A stretch of DNA of 64,000 nt, taken from Clostridia bacterium. Its GTDB lineage: Bacteria; Bacillota; Clostridia; Christensenellales; CAG-138. Each line of letters begins with the position of its first letter. The first letter of the stretch is position 1. This document shows positions 6,259 through 60,082 of this stretch, piece after piece. The notes below the pieces were generated by a model that was given only the letters and a program-made list of their open reading frames with translations, did not search any database and had not been told where the DNA came from. The stretch covers positions 78,221 to 142,220 of the forward strand of contig JAFPXD010000003.1 in the NCBI GenBank assembly GCA_017394835.1, written 5' to 3'. Position numbers and translations under genes: made by a program.

Positions 6259-6347
6259 GGAGAGATGGCCGAGTGGTTTAAGGCGCCGGTCTTGAAAACC
6301 GGTGATGTCGCAAGGCACCGGGGGTTCAAATCCCTCTCTCTCCGCCA
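6259..6347 (+). tRNA. tRNA-Ser (anticodon UGA), CCA encoded
   Basis: Acceptor stem GGAGAGA/TCTCTCC, anticodon loop CUUGAAA, long variable arm, T-arm GGGGG-TTCAAAT-CCCTC, 3' GCCA. Confidence 0.92.
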
Positions 6348-6356
6348 ACGCTATAT

Positions 6357-6448
6357 GGAGAAGTACCCAAGAGGTCGAAGGGGCTCCCCTGCTAAGGGAG
6401 TAGGATCTGCGAAGGGTCGCCAGGGTTCAAATCCCTGCTTCTCCGCCA
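6357..6448 (+). tRNA. tRNA-Ser (anticodon GCU), CCA encoded
   Basis: Acceptor stem GGAGAAG/CTTCTCC, anticodon stem CTCCC/GGGAG with loop CUGCUAA, long variable arm, T-arm CAGGG-TTCAAAT-CCCTG, 3' GCCA. Confidence 0.92.
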
Positions 6449-7124: not shown

Positions 7125-7255
7125 TCTGTCATTCCCTGCGGCTTTCAATTCTACATCCTCTCTTTTTGCACAGATCCTTTTGTTTTTTTCCCTTCTGTGC
7201 TATAATTATTTTACGGCGCCGTTCCGCCGCAACCAATATGAAAAAGGAGAAAAAC

Positions 7256-26324: not shown

Positions 26325-27655
26325 TATGCCTTGCCTCCTTTTTGTGAATTCTGCCAATCCCGCAAAGCAGCCTTGGCGAGCTTATGCCTCTGCACTATGG
26401 GCTGATGCGCGGGGCAGACGAAAGCGCATGCGCCGCACTCCATGCAGAGATTGACCTTTTGCTTGACGAGCGCTTCCATATTGCCGGAGTTATACGCCTT
26501 TGCGATAGCGGGCGGATCGAGACGCATCGGGCAGTGATTTACACAGTTGCCGCACCTGAGGCACGGAGTCGCCTCCTTATAGGCGGCGTCATGCTCGTCA
26601 AAAGCAAGGATGGCGTTGGTGTTTTTGAGTATGGGAGCTTCGAGGCTCGGAACCGCGGTGCCCATCATGGGCCCTCCGTAGAGCACCTTTGCGGGGGCCG
26701 ATTTGAAGCCGCCGCAGAACTCGAACACATCCCCGAGCCTTGTGCCGATCGGGACGGCCACGTTCATCGGGTTCTTGACCGCGGAGCCATCGACCGTCAC
26801 TACCTTTTCCACAAGGGGCATGCCCGTTTCGATATAGCGCTCTATATTGGCGAGGGTGGTGACGTTCATAATGACAACGCCCACGTCAAGGGGAAGTTTG
26901 CCTTCCGGCACTATCCTTCCGGTGGTGTTGTAGATGAGCACCTTTTCGCCGCCCTGCGGGTACATCGAGGGGAGCGCCTTTACGATGATGGTGGGATCGT
27001 CCGCGAAAACCTGTTTGAGCTTCGCAACGGACTTCGGCTTGTTGTTTTCAATGCCGATATAGACCGCCTTGGGCTTCAGGTATTCGGAAATGCGGCGGAC
27101 GCCCCTTTCGATAAGATCGGAATGCTCGAGCATGGTGCGGGTATCGCTCGTGATATAGGGCTCGCACTCCGCGCCGTTTATGACGAAATACTCCGCCTGT
27201 TCGATATCCTTTATCGCAAGCTTTACCGAGGTCGGGAAGCCCGCTCCGCCGAGGCCCACTATGCCGCTTGCCCTTATCGCCTCCGCAAGGTCGGCAAGGG
27301 AGTTGATCTCCGGCTTTGCGAGCCCTTCGTAAACGGTCATTTCTCCATCGGATTCTATAATGATCGCGGGAGCGTTCCTGCCGTTGCTCAAAGTGATCTC
27401 TTCCACTTTTTTGACGACGCCCGAAACGGAAGCGTGTATGGGAGCGGAAACGAACCCGCCCGATTCCGCTATGAGCTGACCGACTGCGACCTTATCGCCC
27501 GCCTTCACTATGGGCTTTGCGGGCGCGCCGATGTGCATGACCGTGGGGATCACGACCGACTTGGGCGGCGGCATAACGACCGTCTCCATAAGGGCGGTGT
27601 TCTTCCTGTGAGGCACGTGCACACCCTTCAAAGAGCTGAATAAACCTTTTGCCAT
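26324..27655 (-). CDS. rnfC: Rnf complex subunit C
   Basis: Start MAKGLFSSLKGVHVPHRK at 27655. NADH/FMN-binding GLGGAGFPT and two C-terminal ferredoxin motifs (CLRCGNCVNHCP, CMECGACAFVCP). Confidence 0.9.
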   Translation of the reverse strand: MAKGLFSSLKGVHVPHRKNTALMETVVMPPPKSVVIPTVMHIGAPAKPIVKAGDKVAVGQLIAESGGFVSAPIHASVSGVVKKVEEITLSNGRNAPAIIIESDGEMTVYEGLAKPEINSLADLAEAIRASGIVGLGGAGFPTSVKLAIKDIEQAEYFVINGAECEPYITSDTRTMLEHSDLIERGVRRISEYLKPKAVYIGIENNKPKSVAKLKQVFADDPTIIVKALPSMYPQGGEKVLIYNTTGRIVPEGKLPLDVGVVIMNVTTLANIERYIETGMPLVEKVVTVDGSAVKNPMNVAVPIGTRLGDVFEFCGGFKSAPAKVLYGGPMMGTAVPSLEAPILKNTNAILAFDEHDAAYKEATPCLRCGNCVNHCPMRLDPPAIAKAYNSGNMEALVKQKVNLCMECGACAFVCPAHQPIVQRHKLAKAALRDWQNSQKGGKA

Positions 27656-27734
27656 TGTTTCTCCGATCTGCCGCTGCGCGGCTGTGGGATAGCGCAAAAA
27701 AGCGCATAATAAACACTTATAGTATTCCGAACAT

Positions 27735-27763
27735 ATTTTAGCACCCAATATATTGTGTGTCAA
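27735..27763 (-). promoter_or_regulatory. Sigma-A type promoter for the rnf operon
   Basis: On the minus strand: TTGACA (27763-27758), 17-nt spacer, TAAAAT (27740-27735). Confidence 0.5.
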
Positions 27764-41769: not shown

Positions 41770-43764
41770 TTAAGCCTCTTCGGCCATCTCTTCATCTTCA
41801 TTGCCGCCTTGACATTGAGGCTCCGAATCGTCATGCTTGAAATTAGGTACAAGCTCCTTTATGCAGTCTATGACCGCTGCGCTGTTCGCATCGGCAAGGG
41901 CAAGGAGCTCCCCTATCTTTTCGTTGAACACATCATCGTCTATCTCGACGGGGCGCGCCTTCATTATCCTGCCGTGCGCAGTCTTCTCCATCTTCTTCTG
42001 TTCTTCGGAAGTGAGCAGCTCCTCGTACATCTTTTCGCCGGGACGGAGACCCGTGATCTCGATGGGCATATCCACGTTCGGTTCGAAGCCATGGAACTTG
42101 ATGACCTTTTCCGCAAGCTCATAGATCCTTACGGGTTCGCCCATATCGAGCACGTAAATCGCGCCGGTTTCGCCCAAAGCGCCCGCCTGCAGAACGAGCT
42201 GGGCTGCCTCGGGGATGGTCATAAAGTATCTTGTGATGTTTTTATCCGTAACAAGCACGGGGCCGCCGGATTTGATCTGCCTTTCAAAGAGAGGGATAAC
42301 GCTCCCGTGGGAGCCCAAAACGTTGCCGAAACGCACTGTCATACAGCGCATTATGCTGTTTTTTGCGAACTGCTGGACAATGAGTTCGGTTATGCGCTTT
42401 GTCGCGCCCATTACATTAGAGGGATTGACCGCCTTATCGGTCGAAAGCTGCACGAACCGCTTGACCCCGTGCTCCTCAGCAGAGCGAAGCACGTTAATGG
42501 TGCCGGCAACGTTGTTCTTGACCGCTTCTGCAGGGCTTTCCTCCATAAGGGGAACGTGCTTATGCGCGGCGGTATGCAGCACGATATCGGGATGGAACTC
42601 CTCCATTACGATATCGAGCCTTGCCTTATCGCGGACCGAGCCGATGCGGATCACGGCGTCCAGCCAGGGGTGCCTCTGCTTCAATTCGCAGTAGAGCTCG
42701 TAAGCATTGTTTTCGTAAATATCGAATATGATGAGCTTGGATGGATAGAACAGCGCCGTCTGACGGCAGATCTCGGAGCCGATCGAGCCGCCTCCGCCCG
42801 TAACAAGCACGCATTTATGTTCCAGATACCCTTCTATGGCGCGGACATCGAGATCGACTTCGGGGCGGAACATTACGTCGGAAATGTTCGTCTCCCTTAT
42901 GTCGCGCATGGTGGGGGTATCGTTCAGATCCTTCAGCGGAGTCATAAGGCGGACGTGGCATTTCGTTTCGCGGCAGATGGTCACGAGCTCCGCCCTGCGC
43001 TTGGAGGTAAGGCTCGGGATCGCGATTATGATCTCCTGCACGCCGAGTTTCTTAACCACAGCGGGGATATCCTCCGAAGTGCCGTAAACCTTCACTCCGT
43101 CTATGCGCATGCCCTTTTTGGCCTTGTTATCGTCAATGAAGCCGACCGTTACGCAGTCCGATTCGCCTCCGTGCCCGTTCATTATCTGGGAATGGACGTA
43201 TGCGCCGAAATAGCCTGCGCCTACTATAAGCGTGGGCTTTTTTTCAAGGGTGCGGGAGCCCTTCTCCGTATCGATTATGACCCTTCTGATTATCCTGTAG
43301 CCGAACCTTGTAATGAACACGAGCGCGCACAGCACCATTGCTGCCAGGCATATCCCCGCTCTGCCCCTGTTCAAAAAGCCGAAGCTGCGCAGGAAGGGTA
43401 TTTTGGAAAACAGGTAGTTTACGAGTATGCAGAGCAGCGCGCCGACGCCGACGCCGGCTATCGCCATTATTCCTTCATTGAGGCCGGATACGCTCCAAAT
43501 GCTGGAATAGAGCCTGAAAAGCATGAATGAAACTATGTAGAGTAATGTGAAAACGCCGATCTGAGTAAAGGTATAGTAATCCTTCAGAGGGCCGTTTGCA
43601 ATGGTTGAAGCCATGAACGGAAAACCGTAACCGTTTTCTACGGCGCTGTGCAGGAACCATGTCGCAAAGGCGAATGCGGCGCAGCAGCACAGGCAATCTA
43701 TCAAAACGAGAAGCACTATGCGCGATATGCGCTCAATATTGGCTTGTTTTCCGGTCATAAACAC
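41770..43764 (-). CDS. capD: Membrane-anchored nucleotide-sugar 4,6-dehydratase/epimerase (CapD/WbpM/PglF family)
   Basis: GTG start after GGAGGA. Four or five N-terminal TM helices and two Rossmann motifs (LIVGAGYFG, VLVTGGGGSIGSE), plus YGATK-like MGATKR. The 696-aa plus-strand ORF here is a shadow ORF. Confidence 0.88.
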   Translation of the reverse strand: MFMTGKQANIERISRIVLLVLIDCLCCCAAFAFATWFLHSAVENGYGFPFMASTIANGPLKDYYTFTQIGVFTLLYIVSFMLFRLYSSIWSVSGLNEGIMAIAGVGVGALLCILVNYLFSKIPFLRSFGFLNRGRAGICLAAMVLCALVFITRFGYRIIRRVIIDTEKGSRTLEKKPTLIVGAGYFGAYVHSQIMNGHGGESDCVTVGFIDDNKAKKGMRIDGVKVYGTSEDIPAVVKKLGVQEIIIAIPSLTSKRRAELVTICRETKCHVRLMTPLKDLNDTPTMRDIRETNISDVMFRPEVDLDVRAIEGYLEHKCVLVTGGGGSIGSEICRQTALFYPSKLIIFDIYENNAYELYCELKQRHPWLDAVIRIGSVRDKARLDIVMEEFHPDIVLHTAAHKHVPLMEESPAEAVKNNVAGTINVLRSAEEHGVKRFVQLSTDKAVNPSNVMGATKRITELIVQQFAKNSIMRCMTVRFGNVLGSHGSVIPLFERQIKSGGPVLVTDKNITRYFMTIPEAAQLVLQAGALGETGAIYVLDMGEPVRIYELAEKVIKFHGFEPNVDMPIEITGLRPGEKMYEELLTSEEQKKMEKTAHGRIMKARPVEIDDDVFNEKIGELLALADANSAAVIDCIKELVPNFKHDDSEPQCQGGNEDEEMAEEA

Positions 43765-43826: not shown

Positions 43827-43855
43827 ATTATACAACATTCGGCCGCCCTTTGCAA
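43827..43855 (-). promoter_or_regulatory. Sigma-A type promoter of the polysaccharide locus
   Basis: On the minus strand: TTGCAA (43855-43850), 17-nt spacer, TATAAT (43832-43827). Confidence 0.5.
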
Positions 43856-43936: not shown

Positions 43937-44440
43937 TCAGTGAGCCGCGTTTTCAACGTCCTTTCCGAGATCGCAGGTGAAAAGCCACCTTATCTCATCC
44001 CCGTCGGAAAGCTTATACTGTGAGCAGCCGTAATTGGGAAACACGCCGTTCACGCTGTACTCCCATCCGCTGAGCTCGCCGCAGTCAAACTCATAGATAT
44101 TGTTTATGCCCTCTATATAGGCGGAGTTATAGACGGGCGTGAACGAGGATTCCAAATGTATCCCTCTTGCGCGGAGCTCCCTTTGGAGCACGTCGAATAC
44201 CGTATCTCCTTCGGAGAAGGCGCACGTGACGGTATCCAATATTATCCCGTCCTCCGGGACAAGCTCCGCCTTGTTCGGATCGAGCATATCGCGGTTATCG
44301 AGGATGGTCCTGCAGTCTATATAGAGGGTGCAGGAAAGCTCTTGCCCGCCCGCTTCGTCATTCTTTTTGCAGGAGAAGGCAGCGCAGGTGAAAACCAATG
44401 CGAGCACAAGCGTTATAAAAAGCTTAATCCTTCTTTTCAT
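43937..44440 (-). CDS. DUF4430 (transcobalamin beta-domain-like) secreted or lipid-anchored protein
   Basis: Signal peptide ending FSC. The hallmark GELSGWEYSVNGVFPNYGCSQYKLSDGDEIRWLF is present. Third gene of the riboswitch-led operon. Confidence 0.75.
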   Translation of the reverse strand: MKRRIKLFITLVLALVFTCAAFSCKKNDEAGGQELSCTLYIDCRTILDNRDMLDPNKAELVPEDGIILDTVTCAFSEGDTVFDVLQRELRARGIHLESSFTPVYNSAYIEGINNIYEFDCGELSGWEYSVNGVFPNYGCSQYKLSDGDEIRWLFTCDLGKDVENAAH

Positions 44441-46010
44441 TCTTTCTCCTTACAGCTATCGCGGCCGCGCATACGGCTGTGACCGCCGCCGCTGCAAGCG
44501 GCAGCCAGAAGCCGATACCGGGCTTTTTTTCATTTTTGGCAGTATCGCCGTTTTCCTTCGCTGCCGCGGGTGTTTCGGATTCTGCCGCGGGCTCTGATGG
44601 CGCCTCTGTCGCAGGTATTGCCGTCGGCCCGGCGGTGGGTCCGGCCGGAGGTATGGTCGTCTCCGGGGTCGGAACGGAAGTCGGCGATCCGGTCGGCAAT
44701 TCACTCGGCACATCCGTCGGCGAATCGGTAGGAATATCCGTGGGCGCATCCGTAGGAGCTTCGGTTGGAGCGGCGGTCTGCGTTTGCAGAGGGGCGTCCG
44801 TCGCAGCAGGCGATTCGGTCGGCTTCGGGGTCGCCGTGGGCTTAGGAGTCGCCGTGGGCTTAGGCGTCGCTGTGGGCTTAGGGGTCGCCGTGGGTTTAGG
44901 CGTCGCCGTGGGCTTAGGAGTCGCCGTGGGCTTAGGAGTCGCCGTGGGCTTAGGAGTCGCCGAGGGCTTAGGCGTTGGCGTAGGCTTAGGCGTCGCCGTG
45001 GGCTTGGGAGTTGCCGTGGGCTTCGGGGTCGAAGTCGGTTTAGGCGTCGTTCCGCCGATGGGCGTCACATCGCTCATGTTATAAAGGTCGTTTTGACCTG
45101 CCCTGTATCTGGAATAGGCGCAGAGCGCGTATGCGGCCTGTTCAGAGGCCATTTGATTAACCACGCCTCCGGATATATGTGCGAAGCCGGAACCTCTGAA
45201 ATAGGCCGTGAGGGCGCTTAAAAGCGAATGCCCGTTTTTGATGAACCGCTGATCGGTATCCGGATCTATGCCGACGGTCGAAAGCGCGGTCACCACCTGC
45301 GCACAGCTTTCGCAGGTCGCGGTGCCGAACGAGGTGAAGCCGCCGTCGGGATCCTGGATAAGGGAAAGCCTTGCGACCGCCCTCTCTATCGCCGAGGACG
45401 CCCTTTGATACGGAGCGAGCGCGGTTATAACGATCCCCGTAACGTCGGGATCGGCCTCGCCGCTGCCGAGCACCCAGCCTCCGCCTGCAAGCTCCCTTCC
45501 GAGCAGGAAATCGACGTAAGCGTTTTTTGTCGCCGTTTCGCCATAGGAAGCGCGTGAATCGAGCGCGAGCAGCGCAAAAGCCGCTCCCGTTACGCCCTGC
45601 CGCTTCACTCCGCTTTGGTTGGTCAGCGGTTCAACAAGGTCATACCCCGAAACGTCACGTGCGTTCCTCCCTATTGAAGTGAGCGCGATCACGAGTCTCG
45701 AGTTTTCGGTAAGCTTATTGGAGTTTATAACTCCGCTCCCGTTTGCGGCGATCATCCGCTCAATGCGGCTGTAATAAGAGGAGCACCAAGCGTCCGCGGG
45801 CCCGACTCTTCCGCTCCTTGCGAGCGCAAAAACGAGCCATTCCCCGCCGACGGACCCGAACGAAGGCGTCATACCCTCGAAACGGTCAAGAGTCAGCTCA
45901 TAAGGGCGGGTATAATCTGTAGCGGCAAATGAGGAAAGCGGCGCCGCCGCCGTAAACAAAACGGCAAGCAGCACCGCGAAAAACCTTTTTTTAAGTGACG
46001 CCTTCATCAC
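44424..46010 (-). CDS. Surface protein: prenyltransferase/terpene-cyclase-like alpha/alpha-toroid domain + (TPKPTA)n linker + C-terminal TM anchor
   Basis: Signal peptide. Repeated toroid motifs (GGEWLVFALA, GGGWVLG, DPDVTGIVITAL, DPDGGFTS). 13 hexapeptide repeats, a Pro/Thr/Ala-rich stalk and a terminal TM followed by RRKNEKKD. Confidence 0.75.
   Translation of the reverse strand: MMKASLKKRFFAVLLAVLFTAAAPLSSFAATDYTRPYELTLDRFEGMTPSFGSVGGEWLVFALARSGRVGPADAWCSSYYSRIERMIAANGSGVINSNKLTENSRLVIALTSIGRNARDVSGYDLVEPLTNQSGVKRQGVTGAAFALLALDSRASYGETATKNAYVDFLLGRELAGGGWVLGSGEADPDVTGIVITALAPYQRASSAIERAVARLSLIQDPDGGFTSFGTATCESCAQVVTALSTVGIDPDTDQRFIKNGHSLLSALTAYFRGSGFAHISGGVVNQMASEQAAYALCAYSRYRAGQNDLYNMSDVTPIGGTTPKPTSTPKPTATPKPTATPKPTPTPKPSATPKPTATPKPTATPKPTATPKPTATPKPTATPKPTATPKPTATPKPTESPAATDAPLQTQTAAPTEAPTDAPTDIPTDSPTDVPSELPTGSPTSVPTPETTIPPAGPTAGPTAIPATEAPSEPAAESETPAAAKENGDTAKNEKKPGIGFWLPLAAAAVTAVCAAAIAVRRKNEKKD
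44821..45054 (-). repeat. 13 tandem 18-nt coding repeats (TPKPTA hexapeptide)
   Basis: On the plus strand: GGCTTAGGAGTCGCCGTG and variants, exact 18-nt period from 44821 to 45054. Confidence 0.9.
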
Positions 46011-46999
46011 ATGACCGCGCGCAGGATAAGGAGCGCGTCGCTAAGGTCGATCTCGCCGTCGCCATTGTAATCGGCATACATGAGGGCGATATCGGAGTCT
46101 TCAACAAGACCCATGCCATAGCGCATTACGAGAAGCGCGTCTTCGGAATTGACAACAAGATCAAGATTGACGTCGCCCATCTCGATCACGGGATTGAGGA
46201 AATCGCGTATCGCCTGCGCGGCGTCGTCGATCTCTGCCTGGGTGGCGTTCACATCAAAGAGCGCATCGAGGAAATTGTTGAAAAGCTCGGAATCACGGCC
46301 AAGCCTATCCATGGACTCCTCATCGGCATTAAGCTCGGCAAGCAGGCGGTCGGCTTCAACGCGGCTCACACCCTCCATGGGGTTGTCGAACAGGGGGAAG
46401 GAACCCCAGCCGTCGCTCAAGCCGTAATCCATACCCCAGCCGTAAATGGAGAAGAACCACTGATAGACGGAGCCGATATTGACGACGGTCGCATCCGCGC
46501 CGGTCGAAAGAGCGATATTGTCCTCAACGAACATCCAACCGGACATGGTGCAGTACTCGCCCGCGGAAAGGGAACGGTCATCATCGAATTCGCCGGTCCA
46601 CTCGCCGAAATTGTAGCCAAACTGCTCGTCCGCCCAATCGGGATAGGCAAGGATCTCGTTCATCAGATATTCGGGAACGTTGGGATCAGTGTATTCACAG
46701 CCGACGCCGGTGAGATAGAAGCCCTCCTCCACCGTGCCGTAATAGGAACACGCGCGGCCGGTCTCTTCGAATACGCGGGCCGTCACCGCGGCAAGAGTCT
46801 CGCCCTCGTGAACGGGAACGAGCTCGGGATACATGATGTAGCCCCATCCCATCGTAAGTGCGGAAACGCCGAATACGACGTAACCGTCATAGCCTTCGGG
46901 CACTTCGGGCACCTGGGGAGCTTCCGCAAGAGCGGGAACGCAGAGAAGGAGCATTGCGGCTGCGATCAGCGCGGCAAGGAAACGTTTGCAGGATTTCAT
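46007..46999 (-). CDS. Secreted DUF4430-like domain protein with a C-terminal type I dockerin
   Basis: Signal peptide (...VPALAEA). DUF4430-like core (SAGEYCTMSGWMFVEDN...GSVYQWFF). Dockerin repeats GDVNLDLVVNSEDAL and ADYNGDGEIDLSDAL. GGAGG RBS lies 9 nt upstream. Confidence 0.7.
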   Translation of the reverse strand: MKSCKRFLAALIAAAMLLLCVPALAEAPQVPEVPEGYDGYVVFGVSALTMGWGYIMYPELVPVHEGETLAAVTARVFEETGRACSYYGTVEEGFYLTGVGCEYTDPNVPEYLMNEILAYPDWADEQFGYNFGEWTGEFDDDRSLSAGEYCTMSGWMFVEDNIALSTGADATVVNIGSVYQWFFSIYGWGMDYGLSDGWGSFPLFDNPMEGVSRVEADRLLAELNADEESMDRLGRDSELFNNFLDALFDVNATQAEIDDAAQAIRDFLNPVIEMGDVNLDLVVNSEDALLVMRYGMGLVEDSDIALMYADYNGDGEIDLSDALLILRAVM

Positions 47000-47029
47000 T
47001 TGACATAACCTCCGTGTCTTATTTTCCGG

Positions 47030-47225
47030 GTCTGCGGCCCATAAGGGAGAATACTCTCCCCCGGCATAGAGCTCCTGCGCAAGGTCTTCCGGCTCGCGGC
47101 TTGACCTAATCGCCCTGCCTTCCCACGCATTATGCGCAGTGACTTGATCCGGGCTTTCGTATCCGCATACGGCAGCGGAGGCTGCTGCGGCATTTCACCG
47201 CATTCCCTTTTCGCAGCAAGCTTTT
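47030..47225 (-). ncRNA. Cobalamin (B12) riboswitch
   Basis: The minus-strand RNA reads ...AAAAGGGAAUGCGGUGAAAUGCCGCAGCAGCCUCCGCUGCCGUAUGCGG...GUCACUGCGCAUAAUGCGUGGGAAGGC...GAGCCGGAAGACCUUGCGCAGG. This matches the conserved core (AAGGGAA-N-GGUGAAA-N-CCGC...CCCGCUxCxGU), the GCCACUG...GGGAAGGC element and the B12 box (AGCCaGGAgACCUGCc). It lies between a promoter and the operon RBS. Confidence 0.8.
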
Positions 47226-47235
47226 TGCCAATATG

Positions 47236-47264
47236 AATATAGCATTGCGTATCCGCTTTGTCAA
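47236..47264 (-). promoter_or_regulatory. Sigma-A type promoter driving the B12 riboswitch operon
   Basis: On the minus strand: TTGACA (47264-47259), 17-nt spacer, TATATT (47241-47236). Confidence 0.55.
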
Positions 47265-47323
47265 TAGGAAATGGGCCCTTCGGCATCATATACAGGCTGA
47301 CGCCCGGCCTCTTTCCCCATCGG

Positions 47324-47974
47324 TTACGCGGGGAAGAACGCGTTATGGCCCAATCTTATCAAAAACGCTATCGCAAGGGTCATAACCGCCATCATAACGA
47401 CCGACAGGTACCATCTGCCGCCCTTATTGAAGCCGTAAAAATCCTCCCAGCCGCCTTTTTCGGGGCCCTTGATAACGACCATCCTGAAATACACGCAGCC
47501 GTATATCACAACGGGAATGAGCGCGAGCCATACGGCGAAAAGAGGGAGCCTGCCGCCTCCGTCGAAGAGTATGCAGGAAGCCATACAGAGCACGGGCACA
47601 ATAAGGTGCAGATGGAGGCTGCCGCCTTCCAGCATGTGCGCGTAACCCGCATAAGGCGCAAGCAGCAGCATGACGACGAAGAACGTGACTCCCACGGCTG
47701 CGGCGCCCACGAATTTAAGGATGGCGGCCCATTCGGGGATCGCCTCCCCCGTAAAGAAGCCTATTATATTGAACACGAGCATTATGATGCACGCCGCGGC
47801 TGCCAAAAGGTTTGAATCGACGGTGAAATACTCAAAGCACCTCGCCTTTTTTACCTGCATATTCGCCCTGCCGCCCTTTGCGGAATAGAATTCGAGCATT
47901 GCGACGGCAACAAGCGCCGCCGATACCGCATTGCAAAGCGCCGAAAGTATGTTGTTTATCAAGCCCCTGTCCAT
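47324..47974 (-). CDS. Integral membrane protein (possibly Pr6Pr family)
   Basis: 216 aa with about 6 TM helices and a YFTVDSNLL motif. The family label is recalled from memory only. An extended -10 TGCTATAAT is at 48023-48015. Confidence 0.55.
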   Translation of the reverse strand: MDRGLINNILSALCNAVSAALVAVAMLEFYSAKGGRANMQVKKARCFEYFTVDSNLLAAAACIIMLVFNIIGFFTGEAIPEWAAILKFVGAAAVGVTFFVVMLLLAPYAGYAHMLEGGSLHLHLIVPVLCMASCILFDGGGRLPLFAVWLALIPVVIYGCVYFRMVVIKGPEKGGWEDFYGFNKGGRWYLSVVMMAVMTLAIAFLIRLGHNAFFPA

Positions 47975-48111: not shown

Positions 48112-50745
48112 TCAGAACTTTTTGGACATAGTCCAGAACTCGTTATCGTATATGTCGGTGAGACAATAGCTTACGAGAGCGGTAAGATCGTCGGGGATGG
48201 GAACGTTGGTGACTTCGGGCATTTGCTTGCCTATGGTAAGAGGATCGCCGAAGAAGTAGCTCGCCTGATAGGTCTTATCATAGCCGTAGAAGTCGCAGAC
48301 GAATTCGAGCTTATCGCCTTCCTTGAGGGCGATAAGGCCCCTGCCCAGGGTATCCGTTTCATCCTTGTAGTTGTAACGGACGCCCGCGACGTAACCGTAT
48401 TCGTTATCCTCCGTCTCGTTATCGAATACGATAATGACGTAAACGAGATGGTCGTGATCACCGTTCAGATATGCGGGAACGCGGCCGGTGATGACGTAAT
48501 CATCGCCGTCGGTGACGTTGCTGATCATGTAATAGGGCACGATCTGACCGTCGAGCGCGATCCAGGTGCGGTCATAGTCTATCAAAAGATCGCCGTCGCT
48601 GTCGAACTCATAGACGTTGTCCATGCCGAGATCGATATAGCCTTCGCCGTCGTCAACGAAAACGTTGAGCTGGACGTTCTGCACCATTTCCCACTTCTCT
48701 TTGGAGAGGGAGAGAACGGTCTTGTCGCCCTTTACGGTGGTCATCATATCGTCCGCATAGATGACGTGGGTATCGTAATAATCGGCGTTGTCGAGCACCT
48801 TCTGCGCGTCGAACCAATCGTTATCACCGATGGATCTGCCGCCCAGAATGGAGCCGATGAGGGAGCCCGCTATATCGCCGCTTCCGCCGGAGCTGCCGCC
48901 GCCGAGGAAGCTGCCGAGCAGACCGCCCAGAACGTCGGAAGAGGAGGAAGAGCTCGTAGTGCCGGAAAGGTCTCCGAAGAGGGAGCCAAGCGGCGAGGAG
49001 GTGCTGCCCGTTGCGATCTGGCCGCCGGCAGCAAGGCTCGCAAAGCTCTTTATGCAGGCGGAATACTGGGGATCCACGCCGATGGCGTTATACAGGCTGA
49101 CGGCGCTGTTGACGCTCGAGAAGCTCGTATAGGGGAAATAGATGGACATACCGTACGCATTGGTCATGGACTTGGAGGTACGGTTATACTTGATGCAGCC
49201 CTGAAGAGCCTTTATGAGGCTCTGCGCCTCGCTCGTGCCGACGCCGTTGGCAAGGTGGATAAGATCGACGTGGTTGATGCCCGCGGAAGCGCCGAACTCC
49301 CTTGCGCTGCGCCTTGCGTTGGCGACAACGTCATACTTCTTGGTATCGAGCAGACCGCTGACGCTCGTCGCAAAATCTCCGAAGGCCCTGGGAACCGTGC
49401 TGTGGAACTCGGCAAGATCGACAATGGAAAGGGTCGTGGAATCGCCCGCGTTGTTCTTCTTGCAGACGTCGTTGAAGTCGTCGATAATGGTCTTGGCAAG
49501 GGTGACCGTGTTGATGGAGGTATTCTTGGAAAGCTCGGTGAGCCATTTCGTGTAATACCAGCCGCAGCCGGGCTCAGTCTCCTCGGAAGCGATGAGGTAA
49601 TCGGCGTACTGGTCGATAACTACCGCATTCTCCAGGGTTGCCATGAGGCAGGCGTCGAAGCCGATGAAATCGAATTTCACGCCGCCGTCGTAAAGCGCCC
49701 TGTTGATCTTATCGAGGGTCATGGACCCGTTGAAGTTCTGATCGTAACCGTAACCGGAGAGGGATCCTCCGCCGTGATCCCAGAATATGAGCATGTAGCG
49801 ATCCGCAGGGTATTTGGAAGCGCAGTACTTGATGAACTCGGTAAGGGTCTTGTTATCGGTCATGGCCTTTTTGCCGAGATCCTTTTCAAGCGCCTGCATG
49901 CCGCGGCTCGTAACGCGCCAGATCTGGTTTGTGGAGTTGGAAATGACGTTGTTCTTCCAGGTCTTGGTGCCGCCCGTTTCAACGATGATATTGACCTTAT
50001 CGTCATTGAGCTGCGCCTTGAGCATCTCGTTCAGGTCGTTGGTCGCCATGCCGTACTTGGATTCGAGGTCGGTACCGCACATATAGACCATTATGGTGAC
50101 TTCATCGTTGCCGTTGCCCCTGAGCTTGGTGTATTTATCCCTCGCAGAGGAATCTATGGTAAGGTTGGGGGTGGCAACGGAGGTGCTGGAGCTCACCGCC
50201 GCGGGAGCGGAAAGATCCGCCTGATCGTAGGTATTAACGGTATTGAAACTGGAATCGTTGTCAAACGTCATGAATCCGGAGGTATCTCCACCGCTGGTCA
50301 TTCCGCCGAGAAGGCTCGAAAGATCGCACTTCTTGCCCTTGAAGAGGAACAGGAGCACGAGCGCGATGAGGATAATGGGAAGAAGCTTGCCGAGGCCGCT
50401 CTTCCTGCCGCCGGAGCTGCTGCCGCCGCCCAGGAGCGAACCCAATAAGCCGCCGCCAAGGCCGCTTGAGCTGCTTTGAGAGCTTGTATTATTGGAGCTG
50501 CCGGAATTGCCGGAGCCGCTCAGCATGCCGCCGATAAGGGAACCCGCGATATCGCCGAGAGCGCCCTTATCGCCGTTATCGCCCTGGGGCTGCTGATTTG
50601 CGCCTTCCTCACGGCCGGAATATCCATCCTCACGGCCTACGGGACCGCCCGTCTGAGCGGGCTTACGCTTGCCGAAAGCGCCGTTGCCCTGGCCGGTTTT
50701 CTTTTTTCTGCCGCCTGAATTGGGGGTGTTATTCATATTCATCAT
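48112..50745 (-). CDS. Membrane-anchored clostripain-family (C11) cysteine peptidase with a Gly/Ser-rich N-terminus
   Basis: His-Cys dyad contexts LIFWDHGGGS and IGFDACLMATLE. VTIMVYMCGTDLES start of the C11 domain. One TM (LLPIILIALVLLFLF). The 741-aa plus-strand ORF is a shadow ORF. Confidence 0.82.
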   Translation of the reverse strand: MMNMNNTPNSGGRKKKTGQGNGAFGKRKPAQTGGPVGREDGYSGREEGANQQPQGDNGDKGALGDIAGSLIGGMLSGSGNSGSSNNTSSQSSSSGLGGGLLGSLLGGGSSSGGRKSGLGKLLPIILIALVLLFLFKGKKCDLSSLLGGMTSGGDTSGFMTFDNDSSFNTVNTYDQADLSAPAAVSSSTSVATPNLTIDSSARDKYTKLRGNGNDEVTIMVYMCGTDLESKYGMATNDLNEMLKAQLNDDKVNIIVETGGTKTWKNNVISNSTNQIWRVTSRGMQALEKDLGKKAMTDNKTLTEFIKYCASKYPADRYMLIFWDHGGGSLSGYGYDQNFNGSMTLDKINRALYDGGVKFDFIGFDACLMATLENAVVIDQYADYLIASEETEPGCGWYYTKWLTELSKNTSINTVTLAKTIIDDFNDVCKKNNAGDSTTLSIVDLAEFHSTVPRAFGDFATSVSGLLDTKKYDVVANARRSAREFGASAGINHVDLIHLANGVGTSEAQSLIKALQGCIKYNRTSKSMTNAYGMSIYFPYTSFSSVNSAVSLYNAIGVDPQYSACIKSFASLAAGGQIATGSTSSPLGSLFGDLSGTTSSSSSSDVLGGLLGSFLGGGSSGGSGDIAGSLIGSILGGRSIGDNDWFDAQKVLDNADYYDTHVIYADDMMTTVKGDKTVLSLSKEKWEMVQNVQLNVFVDDGEGYIDLGMDNVYEFDSDGDLLIDYDRTWIALDGQIVPYYMISNVTDGDDYVITGRVPAYLNGDHDHLVYVIIVFDNETEDNEYGYVAGVRYNYKDETDTLGRGLIALKEGDKLEFVCDFYGYDKTYQASYFFGDPLTIGKQMPEVTNVPIPDDLTALVSYCLTDIYDNEFWTMSKKF

Positions 50746-52239: not shown

Positions 52240-53193
52240 TCAGGCTTCGCCGCCTTCGAAGCGGATCTTCTTGTACTTTTCGATCTCGCTCGGGCTGCCG
52301 AAAACCATGTGGCCGTTGCCTATATCGACCAGCTCTGGCTGCTCGGTGGAATAATCGTGGACGCTCGTATCATAAATGAAGAGCTTCTTGGACTTCTCGA
52401 GCTTGGGATCGGGCACGGGGATAGCGGACATCAAGGACTTCGTATAGGGATGCAGCGGATAATGGAAGAGCTCTTCCGTTTCCGCGATCTCCATTATGCG
52501 GCCCTTGTAGATAACGACAATCCTATCGCTGATGAAGCGGACGATGGAAAGATCGTGCGCTATGAACAGATAGGTCAGGCCCCTCTCCTTCTTGAACCTT
52601 TCGAGAAGATTCAATACCTGCGCACGGATCGAAACGTCCAGCGCGGAGATAGGCTCGTCGGCGATTATGAACTCGGGCTCCATGACGATCGACCTTGCAA
52701 GGCCTACACGCTGGCGCTGACCGCCGGAGAACTCATGGGGATAGCGGGTAAGATGCTCGGGAAGAAGGCCGACTTCCTCGGTGATCTTCTCGATCTTGGC
52801 CATCCTGTCCTTCTCATCCTTGTAAAGATGGAAGTTGTAGAGACCTTCGGAAATTATGTATTCGATCGTGGCGCGCTCGTTAAGGGAGGCCGCGGGATCC
52901 TGGAATATCATCTGGATCTTGCGGATGACCTCCTTATCGTCCTTGCGGGAGAGCTTGCCGGAGATCCTCTTTCCCTTATAGTAGATGGCGCCAGCAGAGC
53001 AGGGGTTGATCCTTATGATGGCGCGGCCGATGGTGGTCTTGCCGGATCCGGACTCGCCTACGAGGGAGAGCGTTTCGCCCTTGTAGATATCAAAGCTTAC
53101 GTTGCTGACAGCCTTGAAAGCCCTCTTGCCTCTGCCGAAGACAACATCGAGATTTTGTATTGAAAGCAATACTTCTTTTTCATTGTTTTCCAT
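52240..53193 (-). CDS. oppF: Peptide (Opp/Dpp-type) ABC transporter ATP-binding protein
   Basis: Walker [10 protein letters not shown], signature FSGGQRQR, Walker [13 protein letters not shown] and the C-terminal oligopeptide-type extension. Confidence 0.88.
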
Positions 53194-53205
53194 AATGCCG
53201 TCTCC

Positions 53206-55008
53206 TTACGCCTTGTATTCCACGTAGCTCTTCTGCATCTTTTCATGCAGATTCTGAATGTTTTCGGGAGTTTCCATCTTGGGAGCCCTCGGATCGAGCA
53301 GCCAGGTCTTCGCATAATGTGTATCGGTGATCTTGAACATGGGAGGTTCCTTCTCAAGATCGATGGCCATGGCGTACTTGTTTCTGGGAGCAAACGCGTC
53401 GCCCTTTATCTTGTTATAGAGGGAAGGCGGCGTGCCGGGAATGGAGAACAGATCCGTACCCTTTTCGCAGAGCTGCGGCAGCGAGGACAGAAGCGCCCAG
53501 GTGTAGGGATGGCGGGGATCGTAGAAAACTTCCTCGACCGTGCCTATCTCGACGATCTGGCCCGCATAGAGAACGGCGACGCGCTCCGCAACGTTCGCAA
53601 CGACGCCGAGGTCGTGCGTGATGTAAACGGTGGTGTAACCGAGCTCCTGCTGCAGATCCTTTATGAGCCTTATGATCTGCGCCTGAATGGTAACGTCAAG
53701 CGCGGTGGTGGGCTCGTCGCAGATGAGTATCTTGGGCTGGCAGGAAAGAGCGATGGCTATAACTATCCTCTGACGCATACCGCCGGAATACTCGAAGGGA
53801 TAATCGTTGAAACGTTCTTCGGGATTGGGGATGCCGACCTTGCCCATTATATCGATGGTGCGGCGCTTCGCTTCGGCCTGAGAGCACTTCTGGTGCTTCA
53901 ATATGACCGTCATGATCTGCTTGCCGATGGTGATAACGGGGTTCAGGGAGGTCATGGGGTCCTGGAATACCGTCGCGATGCGGCGGCCGCGGATCGCCTG
54001 CCAGTCCTTGGTGTATTTGACCTTGGCGCAGTCGATAATAGCGTAGCCGTGAAGCTCTTCCTTCTCCTCATCATAACTGCGGTATTCGACGCGGAACGCG
54101 GCGACCTCGAATATCTTGTTGAGGACTTCGGGATCGTTAAGATCCTCGCCGGTGGCCATAGCGACCTTGAACGCCTTGTTGAGCTTCGAGCGGAACTTCA
54201 TCTGGGTGCTTATGGGGTACCTTTCGATGGAGAGCAGGAGCTCCTTGGCGATCTTCTCATTACGGACGATCACCTCATCGGAGAGCCCGTTGGGATTGGC
54301 GGGATTATCGTGCGCGGCGATCTTGGCATTGCGCTGAGCTTCGAGGTTTTTAAGCTCTTCCCTGTCCTTCAGGGCCTTTTCCTTATTGTTGTTGTAATCG
54401 GCCTTGCGGGAAGCGATGAGCGCTGCCCTTTCCTTCTCGAGAGCTTCACGCTGCTCGTTCAGGGAGGCGACGTCCGCCTTGAGTTTCGCCATCTCGGCGG
54501 CGTCGTCGGCATTGCGCTTATCGAGGGTCTGCATATAGTTGTTCTTATCGACGGCATTGTCGGTAAGCTGCTTGATCCTTGCGGCGTAATCGGCTTCCTC
54601 ATCCTCGCTTAAGGACTGGGCCGCCTCGATCTCCTTCTTCTTTGCGAGGATCTGCCTGTACTCTTCCGCACCGCGCTCGAGAACGGAGTTCTTATTGAGC
54701 ATATCGGTGAGGTTCTTCAAGCTCCTCTTATTTGCCGGAGTGAGCTTGACGGTGGTTTCGGAGATCTCGTCATCGGAGAATATGATGGAGCCGTTGGAAA
54801 TGAAGCCGTTGGTCTCGAGCATGCCGGCGAAGGTCTTGGTAAGAACGGATTTGCCGGAGCCGGACTCGCCGACTATCGCGAGGGATTCATTCTCGTAAAT
54901 ATCGAGCGAAACGCGGCGGATAGCGGTCAGGATACGGCCGCGGACGTTGAACTTGACTTCAACATCCTTAAGGGACAGCAGGACTTTTCTTTCTTTGTTG
55001 TTTTCCAT
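53206..55008 (-). CDS. oppD: Peptide ABC transporter ATP-binding protein with a coiled-coil-rich insertion of about 240 aa
   Basis: Walker A GESGSGKSV, then a long Lys/Glu/Ala-rich insert before VFQDPMTSLNP. Signature YSGGMRQR and Walker B ILICDEPTTALD. 600 aa, against about 330 for canonical OppD. Confidence 0.85.
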   Translation of the reverse strand: MENNKERKVLLSLKDVEVKFNVRGRILTAIRRVSLDIYENESLAIVGESGSGKSVLTKTFAGMLETNGFISNGSIIFSDDEISETTVKLTPANKRSLKNLTDMLNKNSVLERGAEEYRQILAKKKEIEAAQSLSEDEEADYAARIKQLTDNAVDKNNYMQTLDKRNADDAAEMAKLKADVASLNEQREALEKERAALIASRKADYNNNKEKALKDREELKNLEAQRNAKIAAHDNPANPNGLSDEVIVRNEKIAKELLLSIERYPISTQMKFRSKLNKAFKVAMATGEDLNDPEVLNKIFEVAAFRVEYRSYDEEKEELHGYAIIDCAKVKYTKDWQAIRGRRIATVFQDPMTSLNPVITIGKQIMTVILKHQKCSQAEAKRRTIDIMGKVGIPNPEERFNDYPFEYSGGMRQRIVIAIALSCQPKILICDEPTTALDVTIQAQIIRLIKDLQQELGYTTVYITHDLGVVANVAERVAVLYAGQIVEIGTVEEVFYDPRHPYTWALLSSLPQLCEKGTDLFSIPGTPPSLYNKIKGDAFAPRNKYAMAIDLEKEPPMFKITDTHYAKTWLLDPRAPKMETPENIQNLHEKMQKSYVEYKA

Positions 55009-55023
55009 GTTGCCGCCTCCTTA

Positions 55024-56001
55024 TTACATGTGGGTCTTGGGATCCGTAGCGTCCGCAAGGCTCTGACCGAGCAGGTAAAGAATGATGGTCAGAAGGGATG
55101 CGTAAGCCACGGGAGGCCAGAACTCCCAGGGGTAGGTGATGAACGCCGTCTGCGCGTCGGAGATCATACGGCCGAGGGTCGGGATCTTCGCGCTCATACC
55201 GAGACCGATGAACGCCATGTAGGTATCCAAGCTGATGTAGGAGGGGACCTCGGTGGCGAGCAGGGTGACTATAACGGAGGTCAGGAACGGGAGGATGTTC
55301 TTGGAAACGATCCTTCCGACGGGAGTGCCCAGGCACTTGGATGCGAGGGAATACTCACGGTCGCGGATGATCATTACCTGCGTCCTGAAGAAGAACGCAA
55401 CGCCTATCCACTGGGTAACGGTCATAGCGAAAACCATCGACCAGAAGCCCGCGCCGACTATGTAGATAAGAACGGCTACGAGGAGGATGTAAGGAACATT
55501 CGCTACGATGTTGTAGATGGGGATCAATATCGCGTCGAGCCTCTTTGAGAAGCCCCAAACGGCGCCGACGATGATGCCCAAGGTCATGTTGACGAGCGAA
55601 CACATTATGGCGAGGAAGAGCGAGGTCCTGGCGCCTGCGAAAATGTTGTACATGATCGAGTTGCCGGAAGGACCGGAGCCCAACAGCCATTTGAAGGAGT
55701 GGCCGAAACTCGCCATGGCCTTTGCGGGACTCAGGTTATAGGTGGTCGCATCCGTTATGTTCTCATAGGGATCGTATTTGCAGATCATCGGCACGAATAT
55801 CGCGGAGGTGATCATGAGTACGAACAGGGCTATGAGGAGGATGTTTCCCTTATGCTTGAAGAATACACGGAAAACGGACTTCCAATAGGAATACCTGGGG
55901 GCGATGATCTTCTCGGAGGCTATGGCGTCGTTGCCGACCACGTTGAAGTTCATCTCTTCGAGCTCTTCGGTATTGTTTACATTTACTCTTTCGTCGTTCA
56001 T
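55024..56001 (-). CDS. oppC: Peptide ABC transporter permease
   Basis: 325 aa with 6 TM helices. The EAA-like loop region LASKCLGTPVGRIVSKNILP is present. Confidence 0.85.
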   Translation of the reverse strand: MNDERVNVNNTEELEEMNFNVVGNDAIASEKIIAPRYSYWKSVFRVFFKHKGNILLIALFVLMITSAIFVPMICKYDPYENITDATTYNLSPAKAMASFGHSFKWLLGSGPSGNSIMYNIFAGARTSLFLAIMCSLVNMTLGIIVGAVWGFSKRLDAILIPIYNIVANVPYILLVAVLIYIVGAGFWSMVFAMTVTQWIGVAFFFRTQVMIIRDREYSLASKCLGTPVGRIVSKNILPFLTSVIVTLLATEVPSYISLDTYMAFIGLGMSAKIPTLGRMISDAQTAFITYPWEFWPPVAYASLLTIILYLLGQSLADATDPKTHM

Positions 56002-57584
56002 TACTTTCTACCTCCGCCGCTTTCTGTGCTAAGGGAAATACGCGGGTCGTAGGCTGCGAGCAGCAGGTCGCCCAGAATGAGGCCCAGAATACTTATAGCG
56101 GTAATAATGAGCGTCATTGCGACGATGACCGAGTTATCGTGCTTGCTGATAGCTTCGATAAGCAGGCCGCCTACGCCGGGAACAGAGTAAACACGCTCGG
56201 TCATAAGAGCGCCGGTCAAGCAGAAGAGGATGCTCGAGGGGATGCCCTGTACGAGATAGATGAGAGCGTTCCTGGAGATGTGGATGTTGTAGATCTCCTT
56301 CTCGGACATACCCTCCGCCCTCGCAAACTTGACGTAGTCGGAGTTCATCTGGTCGATCATGTAGCGCCTTGTCCACTTCATAAGGGAACCGATGGAGCCC
56401 AGCGAGAGCGAAATGGTGGGCAGGATATATGCGAGTATCTTGACCTCCGCGCTCGCGAACTTGTAAGGCAGCTTCAGTATCCTTGTACCGAACGCCGCTA
56501 CAAGGAATATGTAAGCGAGCGAAGGTACCGCCGCAACGAATACGATGTACGCGTTGCCGATCTTATCGAATATGCCGTCCTTATGGCGGGCCATCGCGAT
56601 ACCTATCGAAACGCCCAGACCGTAGGCCAGGAATACGGAGATAAGACCTATAACGAAGGAGTTTTCGAGGCGGGTCAGACCCGATCTGTTGTAGGAATAG
56701 ACAGTGTAATTGTCGTTGAACATTTCCCTGTCATGATCGGTGATGATGCCCGAAGCGTTATAGGTGAGCGAATGGAAATCGATGGCCGTTTTCTCGTACT
56801 TATCGGTGCCGAGCGCAGTCGGATACTGCTGCATCGTTTCCTTAATATCGCCCGTCGGCGTGGTTATAACGTCTGTGATCTCCTGGCCCCTGTATGTGGT
56901 GTACGAGGTGCCGAGGTTGAAATGCATCCAATTCTGATGGATGAACGGGAAGCGCCCGTCGAAATAGAGCTGGTACTTATGCTGAGTGCCGGAACCCACT
57001 ATTGCGAACAAGCCGGAATAGGGGTCCTTTTCCACCTTGATGTAGCGTTCGGTCAGATTCTCATCCTTCACCTGATTCTTGTTCTCGAAGGAGATGATGT
57101 GGGTAAAATAGTCCCACAGACGAGAAAACACGCTCCTTTCGTGAACGGCAATAAGGTAAGGGGTCCCGCCGGGCTTTAACCTGCCGTTCTTATATGTTTT
57201 CGGCTCCATATAGACGATGTCATCGCCCTTGTATTTTTCTTTGAATTCCTGAACGCTGGCATTCTCAAGAGCCTTCTCTGCATTCTGGATAGCGTCGCGA
57301 TCGGCTTTGTAATCATCATGATTGGCATAGTCGTCGCCATATAATGCTTGATACTTCTCCTTCAGGAAGCTGCCGTAATCGACGTACGTCAGATAACCGT
57401 ATTTTTGATACTGGTTATACTCGTACAATTTTTGATCGTTCTCGCTCTTCTTATTCCACATATCATCCGACTGGAATATGACGTCCCTGTGGATGAAGGT
57501 ATAGATAAGAAGCATGACGACAGCGATAACTATTATCAGCGAGAAGATGGAGAAGAGTATGCGTTTAAGCAAGTATTTACTCAT
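56001..57584 (-). CDS. oppB: Peptide ABC transporter permease with an enlarged extracytoplasmic loop after TM1
   Basis: N-terminus MSKYLLKRILFSIFSLIIVIAVVMLL is typical of OppB, and the EAA loop FARAEGMSEKEIYNIHISRNAL is present. About 275 aa lie between TM1 and TM2. 527 aa, against about 310. Confidence 0.85.
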   Translation of the reverse strand: MSKYLLKRILFSIFSLIIVIAVVMLLIYTFIHRDVIFQSDDMWNKKSENDQKLYEYNQYQKYGYLTYVDYGSFLKEKYQALYGDDYANHDDYKADRDAIQNAEKALENASVQEFKEKYKGDDIVYMEPKTYKNGRLKPGGTPYLIAVHERSVFSRLWDYFTHIISFENKNQVKDENLTERYIKVEKDPYSGLFAIVGSGTQHKYQLYFDGRFPFIHQNWMHFNLGTSYTTYRGQEITDVITTPTGDIKETMQQYPTALGTDKYEKTAIDFHSLTYNASGIITDHDREMFNDNYTVYSYNRSGLTRLENSFVIGLISVFLAYGLGVSIGIAMARHKDGIFDKIGNAYIVFVAAVPSLAYIFLVAAFGTRILKLPYKFASAEVKILAYILPTISLSLGSIGSLMKWTRRYMIDQMNSDYVKFARAEGMSEKEIYNIHISRNALIYLVQGIPSSILFCLTGALMTERVYSVPGVGGLLIEAISKHDNSVIVAMTLIITAISILGLILGDLLLAAYDPRISLSTESGGGRK

Positions 57585-57754
57585 ATTAGTATCCGTATGA
57601 GTACGGCTTCAAGCCGTAATCTCCCTCTCATTTAGGATTTGGTACCGCGGGCAGACGCCCGGGGCGAAAGGACAGCGGCGGAAGCGTTTCCGCCATAACA
57701 GATCGGGTGAAATGAGCCTTCGGCAGAGCCGAAAAAGCCATTAATCTAAAATGT

Positions 57755-57782
57755 GCATATAGGGGGTTGCCCCCCTATATGC
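57755..57782 (-). terminator. Intercistronic hairpin / partial terminator between oppA and oppB
   Basis: GCATATAGGGGG-(loop)-CCCCCTATATGC, followed on the minus strand by a weak U tract. Confidence 0.5.
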
Positions 57783-57816
57783 ATAAGGTTCAAAGCTGAT
57801 CTGGAAAGTTCGTGAA

Positions 57817-59997: not shown

Positions 59998-60082
59998 GAT
60001 TTTTCCTCCTAAAATATTTATTGCTCCGATCACGGGAACGCCCTAAAGAGCATACCCATACCATTGCAATATTGTATAGCTT

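Follow-up and report, generated by a model that had tools for sequence, protein, structure and literature searches.

Why would a bacterium place three extracytoplasmic proteins, none of them a known B12 transporter or biosynthetic enzyme, under the control of a cobalamin riboswitch? The question is raised by a minus-strand operon at positions 43937–47264 of a 64,000-nucleotide (nt) stretch of contig JAFPXD010000003.1 from a Clostridia bacterium (the whole stretch is hereafter called the window). In order of transcription, the operon encodes protein A, which carries a dockerin; protein B, an alpha/alpha toroid on a stalk; and protein C, a small lipoprotein-type member of the DUF4430 family. We propose that it is probably a B12-repressed surface corrinoid-capture operon that feeds an importer encoded elsewhere in the genome. 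Within this proposal we infer that: (i) the ligand is a corrinoid, (ii) it is clamped between the toroid and a beta-type domain, (iii) it is handed inward and (iv) expression is controlled through a kissing loop.

Two features of related gene cassettes support the proposal, and both bear out suggestions of the original prediction, which was made from the sequence alone. Because 37 of 79 cassettes encode toroid and DUF4430 (beta) domains as a single fusion protein, the two are expected to work together; and because 55 of the 79 continue into genes for an energy-coupling factor (ECF) transporter, one of whose substrate-binding (S) components matches the B12 transporter CbrT (locus L002, E 5e-13), hand-off to a transporter is backed as well.

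A cobalamin riboswitch and three overlapping genes

Over its full length (model positions 1–189), the Rfam cobalamin riboswitch model RF00174 matches positions 47062–47266 of the minus strand with a score of 88.7 bits (E 1.4e-20; gathering score 31.5). At its 5' end this match coincides with the promoter for ~37 nt; the core from P1 to P1' spans ~47216–47075 as judged by eye, and 47247–47082 in an nhmmer search. Both conserved core motifs are present, GGGAAUGCGGUGAAAUGCC and the B12 box GAGCCGGAAGACCU, the latter at ~47094–47082, with the promoter on one side of the element and the ATG of gene A on the other. The promoter is of the sigma-70 type (47236–47264, minus strand), with TTGACA and TATATT separated by 17 nt, 11 of 12 matches to the consensus and an upstream TG that extends the −10 element.

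Gene A (46007–46999; 330 amino acids, aa), gene B (44424–46010; 528 aa) and gene C (43937–44440; 167 aa) are open reading frames (ORFs) of the minus strand. The TGA stop codon of A (46009–46007) overlaps the start of B, which is either GTG at 46010 or ATG at 46007, the latter being the start chosen by gene callers on near-identical contigs. The start of C at 44440 falls 17 nt within B and is preceded by AGGAG. The next gene, a CapD-like polysaccharide synthesis gene (41770–43764), is served by a separate promoter-like site of its own, TTGCAA-17-TATAAT (43827–43855, minus strand), and the operon therefore appears to stop after C, which suggests that the unit consists of three genes. The promoter (47264–47236), a riboswitch at about 47225–47030 and the overlapping gene junctions were all part of the original prediction, and each stands.

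Proteins A and C carry transcobalamin-beta-type domains

Protein C begins with a lipoprotein-type leader, in which a PROSITE-style pattern locates the lipobox AAFSC at residues 20–24 (44383–44369, minus strand) with Cys24 as the predicted site of lipidation. Residues 78–155 (44209–43976, minus strand) match the DUF4430 family PF14478 with 67.5 bits, against a gathering score of 23.8 (E 1.4e-18). Human transcobalamin (TC), used here as a sequence identical to 7qbf_A, combines PF01122 (residues 1–305) with PF14478 (residues 334–406, 25 bits), and the C family aligns to TC residues 327–406 in hhalign with an E value of 9.7e-5. The lipobox is conserved in the C-type proteins of the clade that shares the toroid and two separate DUF4430 proteins of the window (the trio), and C-type proteins overall carry either a lipobox or an N-terminal transmembrane anchor. 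The exact sequence of C also occurs in GCA_017509025.1 and in many other metagenome contigs.

Protein A, as assigned from profiles, structural models and direct reading of the sequence, comprises a signal peptide (~aa 1–25), a transcobalamin-beta-like domain of the SLBB/DUF4430 superfamily (~aa 36–205), a helical linker (~aa 210–268) and a type I dockerin (aa 275–328; 46177–46016, minus strand). The dockerin is the sole domain that Pfam reports (PF00404, Dockerin_1, E 2e-9), and its two calcium-binding repeats can be read as DVNLDLVVNSED and DYNGDGEIDLSD. PF14478 gives no match to the N-terminal domain even at E≤10. A DUF4430 profile seeded with C matches A at 1.5e-14, profiles built from the N-terminal domain of A and from C select an identical set of 140 ORFs in related loci, and three homologues of A have precomputed PF14478 matches. 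An AlphaFold2 model of A, computed from a 33-sequence alignment, has a predicted local distance difference test score (pLDDT) of 87.7 and a predicted template modelling (TM) score of 0.74. In a Foldseek search of the PDB its best match is human TC, with a TM score of 0.76 and an E value of ~1e-4 to the isolated beta domain (5no0/5np4), followed by haptocorrin, intrinsic factor and the Ruminococcus gnavus DUF4430 protein 3u7z; the C-terminus superimposes on the Clostridium thermocellum dockerins 2ccl_B and 1ohz_B with TM scores of 0.86–0.92 (0.86 for 2ccl_B). The profile and model comparisons support placing the N-terminal domain of A in the transcobalamin-beta/DUF4430 superfamily despite the PF14478 miss.

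A second dockerin protein is encoded in the window at 7166–7906 on the plus strand; it has 246 aa and is of a secreted type, and a C-terminal type I dockerin is the only domain recognised in it. Its presence implies that the organism uses cohesin–dockerin display. No cohesin was seen among the scanned proteins of the window.

Protein B is a single toroid on a membrane-anchored stalk

Protein B consists of a signal peptide (~aa 1–29, read from the sequence), a single alpha/alpha toroid of ~290 residues (~aa 31–320; 45920–45051), a Pro/Thr-rich stalk of ~180 residues (~aa 321–497) and a C-terminal transmembrane helix with a basic tail (aa 498–528; 44519–44427), all on the minus strand. Within the stalk, an 18-nt tandem repeat (44821–45049, minus strand; 12.7 copies) encodes (TPKPTA)n. 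The number of copies differs between strains, such that B is 513, 525, 527 or 528 aa long in contigs that are 99–100% identical, and the length of the surface stalk is thus polymorphic in the population. Stalk and C-terminal transmembrane helix are kept in 29 of 46 toroid-only proteins of related cassettes, and other toroid proteins have a dockerin or, to judge by C-terminal sequence and a RefSeq name, apparently S-layer homology domains.

In Pfam, B has no match at gathering score, and none to PF01122. A profile of the B family matches squalene-hopene cyclase in the PDB (1gsz, E 4e-16), and the single sequence matches class II cyclase-like proteins at ~1e-8 (7xq4, E 6.9e-9). At the position of the class II DxDD motif, B reads ADPDVT where 7xq4 has SDVDDT, and [AP]DPD[IV]T is the conserved pattern of the family. 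Neither the catalytic DxDD nor the two-domain (beta-gamma) active site of the cyclases is found in B, which has the one toroid only. The original descriptions of A as a secreted DUF4430-like protein with a dockerin, of B as a secreted toroid with a Pro/Thr stalk and a C-terminal anchor, and of C as a small DUF4430 protein with a signal or lipoprotein-type leader all agree with these results.

Related cassettes link the putative binders to ECF transport

The toroid domain is widespread: in a library of 1.84 billion proteins it is matched by 5578 representative clusters at E≤1e-3 and by 4436 at E≤1e-10. Many of the best-scoring proteins combine several domains, run to as much as ~5000 aa and are matched in two or three places. 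Scanning the species representatives of GTDB yielded 466 confirmed loci. We fetched 79 of these, called ORFs in them and tabulated 79 cassettes, the window included, using profiles built from the window proteins and one ECF-bearing relative. Apart from the 37 cassettes with fused domains, toroid and DUF4430 are split in 42, among which 25 have two separate DUF4430 proteins and so correspond to the trio of the window. A dockerin is present in 35 of the 79, and the 55 that continue into transporter genes encode EcfT, a fused EcfAA' and an S component. A cobalamin riboswitch lies upstream on the same strand in at least 57 cassettes, according to an nhmmer profile that agrees with Rfam in 12 of 12 sources (the window and 11 loci); several of the riboswitch-negative cassettes end at a contig edge. 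Anchors vary among the relatives and are always extracytoplasmic. In public annotation, members are variously named ‘dockerin protein’, ‘DUF4430 protein’, ‘hypothetical’, ‘S-layer homology domain-containing protein’ and ‘terpene cyclase/mutase family protein’.

The last of these names, given by NCBI to one homologue, points to another account of B, in which it would be a terpene-cyclase- or prenyltransferase-type enzyme acting on a surface lipid or glycan and the DUF4430 proteins would serve as accessory binders unrelated to it. In sequence, B most resembles squalene-hopene cyclase and class II cyclase-like proteins, which fits such an enzyme; a single toroid of ~290 residues exported on a stalk does not, and nor does DPDV at the DxDD position, with D-P-D-[IV]-T conserved in the family. 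With the toroid fused to DUF4430 in 37 of the 79 cassettes, and under B12 control, we regard an enzymatic role as extremely unlikely.

The S component of locus L002, the one S component that we checked, has CbrT (6FNP_A) as its sole PDB match. This bears on the nature of the ligand, for which heme or another tetrapyrrole has to be weighed, as proposed for Lsa1836–1840 of Lactobacillus sakei. (Statements on bioRxiv 10.1101/864751, PMC1796856 and PMC5997447 refer here and below to excerpts of these papers.) In L. sakei, the secreted proteins Lsa1839 and Lsa1840, which HHpred likened to TC-beta and TC-alpha, respectively, are encoded in an ECF operon; the authors envisaged a heterodimer around a tetrapyrrole that is passed to the ECF S component, and argued for heme (bioRxiv 10.1101/864751). 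Their study docked heme in a homology model and tested uptake with a deletion mutant and its complementation (bioRxiv 10.1101/864751). For the window, a heme ligand appears very unlikely to us: a cobalamin riboswitch precedes this operon and is found in at least 57 of the 79 cassettes, no heme-related gene was found among the scanned neighbours, and CbrT, which the linked S component matches in L002, is a proven transporter of B12 and cobinamide (PMC5997447).

No ECF genes adjoin the trio in the window or in the eight relatives closest to it (L001, L006, L007, L009–L012 and L015). These nine are metagenome-assembled genomes of uncultured Clostridia, and those with a stated source come from ruminant gut. 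We considered whether such a trio is a decaying remnant left after loss of the ECF genes and rejected this: the three ORFs are intact and 98–100% identical across many metagenome contigs, and the same architecture is kept in eight related species at ~50–64% identity.

The separation from ECF genes would also suit a system in which surface capture of corrinoids serves mainly for hoarding, as competitive sequestration or storage with no dedicated importer, and dockerin display, which puts A away from the membrane, would suit it equally. Repression by intracellular B12, however, follows the logic of an uptake system, and 55 of the 79 cassettes combine these proteins with an ECF importer in one transcription unit. 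Moreover, S components are often encoded apart from the shared module, an example being CbrT of Lactobacillus delbrueckii, which has one ECF module in common with other S components (PMC5997447). We therefore judge hoarding to be unlikely, and prefer capture for import.

Two further kinds of relative were observed. The first comprises natural fusions of ~900 aa that join an A-type beta domain, a toroid, beta-sandwich modules and a dockerin (P0036, with ~100 homologues); fusions of this kind also occur at L047, L048, L062, L065, L066 and L079. The beta-sandwich modules of P0036 (residues ~600–840) match cohesins by Foldseek, and a protein with both cohesin-like and dockerin modules could self-assemble or serve as an adaptor. 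The second comprises giant surface proteins, mostly from Paenibacillus (L028, L033, L053, L059 and L084), which reach ~2300 aa among the fetched loci and ~5000 aa in the library of representatives. They contain two or three toroids, to which those of the fetched loci add as many as three DUF4430 domains. Such proteins would hold several putative binding units per polypeptide.

The leader suggests translational control

The minimum-free-energy fold of the leader is no better than that of shuffled sequences (z −0.29), and a consensus scan of the stretch from aptamer to start codon found no canonical terminator; we therefore deduced the expression platform by comparison with the leaders of relatives. 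In this comparison the aptamer loop L5 reads CCUCCG (47176–47181, minus strand) and is perfectly complementary to the Shine-Dalgarno (SD) sequence CGGAGG (47014–47009), which lies in the loop of a small hairpin with the stem GACA/UGUC (47002–47018, minus strand), a candidate P13/L13. The CCUCCG form of L5 is restricted to a clade with short leaders that includes the window (40–95 nt past the B12 box, no U-run and no terminator). Most ECF-linked relatives have (U/A)CCCCG in L5 and leaders of 125–244 nt, in which hairpins are followed by U-runs. In corrinoid riboswitches, a ligand-stabilised kissing loop between L5 and L13 is the established switch, and the L5 consensus is UCCCG (PMC10327014). 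Because no terminator is present and L5 is an anti-SD sequence in the short-leader clade, we infer, by analogy with that switch, that translation of A would be repressed through direct occlusion of its SD sequence, an effect that would reach B and C through the gene overlaps. From these leader sequences, one gene family looks to have switched between translational and transcriptional control.

Full-length cassettes without a cobalamin riboswitch also occur, at L004 and L005 (Roseburia), L036 and L037 (Terrisporobacter), L067 and L077, as judged by nhmmer for all and by Rfam for L004 and L037. Part of the cassette family may be differently regulated or constitutive.

A second, longer-range interaction is seen in the leader. 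The hairpin GGG-CCGCAGA-CCC(GG) (47026–47040, minus strand) presents a loop, GCAG(A), that can pair with codons 3–5 of gene A (CCUGC, 46992–46988), and the corresponding helix between the loop UGCAGAG and the codons CUCUGCA is conserved. Over 18 leaders, 81.9% of cells are paired, whereas slid controls reach no more than 47%; compensatory changes occur at three pairs, and none of 500 shuffles exceeded the covariation score. Among the leaders of L001–L026, compensatory changes are seen in L023 (GUAGA/UCUAC) and L020 (GCAGU/ACUGC). The need to keep this helix may be the reason why the signal peptide of most homologues begins MK(L)C.

Proposed mechanism and the evidence against it

Based on these observations, the following sequence of events can be proposed. 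When the intracellular corrinoid concentration is high, the aptamer would bind its ligand, L5 would kiss the SD-containing loop and translation of A would be blocked, and the overlapping genes B and C would drop along with it. When B12 is scarce, the proteins would be made: A would dock on a cohesin-bearing scaffold, B would stand off the membrane on its stalk, and C would sit at the membrane. The beta-type domain of A, of C or of both would then clamp a corrinoid together with the toroid, in the manner of the two domains of transcobalamin, and the corrinoid would move inward to an importer whose genes lie elsewhere in the genome; a CbrT-type S component that uses a shared ECF module is the most likely candidate.

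A more specific, tentative version of this scheme is a spatial relay, which we regard as possible and rather doubtful: A would act at the outer edge on the scaffold, the toroid of B in the wall zone and C at the membrane, with the toroid swapping beta partners on the way to the ECF S component. If such a relay operates, ECF transporters would gain a dedicated extracellular capture stage, and cellulosome-type scaffolds would serve vitamin acquisition.

Several results weigh against the proposed capture and import of corrinoids. The first concern the toroid, whose nearest relatives by sequence are terpene cyclases and not transcobalamin. The B profile retrieved no TC, intrinsic factor or haptocorrin from the PDB at E≤10, and an hhalign comparison of the B family with aligned TC sequences from three species gave a non-significant E value of 0.076 over 24 columns that contain a QxxxGxF-type repeat. 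In a model of P0036, the natural fusion of A- and B-type domains, the N-terminal beta domain has a pLDDT below 50, and the packing of the domains is unreadable. The remaining points concern regulation, genome context and the literature: (i) the L5 and SD loops are both invariant within the short-leader clade, and thus show no covariation; (ii) in 12 non-truncated cassettes no riboswitch was detected at the expected position; (iii) no ECF, BtuFCD or BtuM gene is present among the scanned ORFs of the 64-kb window, which extends to these ORFs what had originally been stated for the operon; (iv) our literature search turned up no biochemical work on B12 binding by these bacterial proteins; and (v) the only wet-lab work found on an apparently equivalent system, that on L. 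sakei, points to heme uptake (bioRxiv 10.1101/864751, in excerpt).

The model of P0036 provides indirect information on the toroid. It was computed from an alignment of fused homologues and B homologues, a mixed A/B alignment from MAFFT having been discarded because it placed A homologues on the toroid. The toroid has a pLDDT of ~90, and the Foldseek list for the model, which consists mostly of cohesin-like modules, includes TC in complex with CD320 (7qbe_C; 452 columns, E 1.2e-4) together with complement thioester domains. The likeness of B to the alpha domain of TC would accordingly hold at the level of fold class only. The original suggestion that the operon encodes the split halves of a transcobalamin is therefore upheld for the beta side, by the model of A (TM score 0.76) and the alignment of C (hhalign, 9.7e-5), and for the alpha side is reduced to this fold-class resemblance.

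Other genes of the window

The riboswitch promoter is preceded by a gene for a Pr6Pr-family membrane protein (47324–47974), and just upstream of that gene lies one for an 877-aa clostripain-family (C11) peptidase (48112–50745, minus strand) with a long, Gly/Ser-rich N-terminal region of low complexity and a transmembrane segment. Three paralogous beta-lactamase-family (PF00144) proteins, one of them fused to an N-terminal GNAT acetyltransferase domain, are encoded within 9 kb on the plus strand (8530–9900, 13785–15524 and 15560–16924). The ordinary context genes (22729–27763 and 52240–60033 on the minus strand, 6259–6445 on the plus strand) include a complete Rnf cluster of the RnfC, D, G, E, A and B types, an Opp-type peptide ABC transporter with a 738-aa binding protein, and two tRNAs with long variable arms.

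Comparison with known systems

Capture of B12 by Gram-positive gut and rumen bacteria is poorly understood relative to the BtuG/BtuH/BtuB system of Bacteroides. BtuG and BtuH are surface-exposed, high-affinity corrinoid-binding lipoproteins of these gut bacteria, regulated by B12 riboswitches, that feed a membrane transporter. They are functional analogues of the proteins proposed here, with unrelated folds (BtuG is a beta-propeller), and they operate at a Gram-negative outer membrane, where the transporter that they feed is BtuB instead of an ECF system. Cellulosomal cohesin–dockerin display offers a second point of comparison: the dockerin of A is a canonical type I dockerin, whereas its cargo is a vitamin-binding-type domain and not a carbohydrate-active enzyme.

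With transcobalamin, intrinsic factor and haptocorrin (PF01122 plus PF14478) the operon shares the pairing of an alpha/alpha toroid with a small beta-grasp domain in extracytoplasmic proteins. Protein C is a stronger member of PF14478 than human TC itself (67.5 versus 25 bits), and the best PDB match of the model of A is the TC beta domain. In contrast to the eukaryotic carriers, the window operon has separate polypeptides and two beta-type proteins, its toroid has no significant PF01122 or TC sequence match, each protein has an anchor of its own (dockerin, stalk with transmembrane helix, predicted lipid), and expression is under riboswitch control.

The idea of bacterial transcobalamin-like proteins goes back to Burroughs, Balaji, Iyer and Aravind, who in 2007 defined a transcobalamin-like clade of SLBB domains (PMC1796856). 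The bacterial SLBB proteins that they described are secreted or displayed at the surface; many are fused to an alpha/alpha toroid, which may lie on either side, the operon frequently contains another, paralogous SLBB gene, and CbiO/CbiQ-type (ECF) genes usually adjoin. From this they proposed a role in B12 scavenging and a bacterial origin of animal transcobalamin (PMC1796856). The window proteins belong to the same family, and the inference drawn from them is the same; in the excerpts used, the 2007 paper does not mention the riboswitch, does not list the dockerin among the fusion partners and does not describe the split layout with three anchors or the loss of the adjoining transporter. A split alpha/beta version was reported in 2019 for L. 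sakei (bioRxiv 10.1101/864751), and the novelty implied in the original prediction was to that extent overstated. L. sakei has one beta-type protein, and its binders are co-transcribed with S, AA' and T, whereas the window has two beta-type proteins and no ECF genes. Lsa1836–1840 are likened to A, B and C by description only, and the excerpts of that paper mention neither a riboswitch nor a dockerin.

For the import step, ECF-CbrT of L. delbrueckii (PDB 6FNP) has been shown to transport B12 and cobinamide; a cbrS gene adjoins cbrT in that organism, and the excerpts of the eLife paper contain no discussion of accessory binders (PMC5997447). In 55 related cassettes, EcfT, fused EcfAA' and an S component come after the putative binders, whereas the window operon, and the window as scanned, have the putative binders without the transporter. 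ECF transporters have been described as working without soluble binding proteins (bioRxiv 10.1101/864751, in excerpt), and accessory surface binders would be an addition to this model.

Should these proteins prove to bind corrinoids, animal transcobalamin would have bacterial counterparts in them and, on the view put forward in 2007, its evolutionary origin. ECF transport would then include a step of extracellular capture, and the proteins would be relevant to competition for cobamides in the rumen, where the B12 supply of the host originates. The compact, split version in the window, with its three small and separately expressible ectodomains, is suited to a direct binding test. In the excerpts and other literature found, we did not see described the dockerin-mounted second beta protein, the use of three different anchors, the separation from ECF genes or the clade-specific change in L5. 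The system as such was predicted in 2007 and is common in Firmicutes, and the operon of the window is an uncharacterised variant of it and not a new kind.

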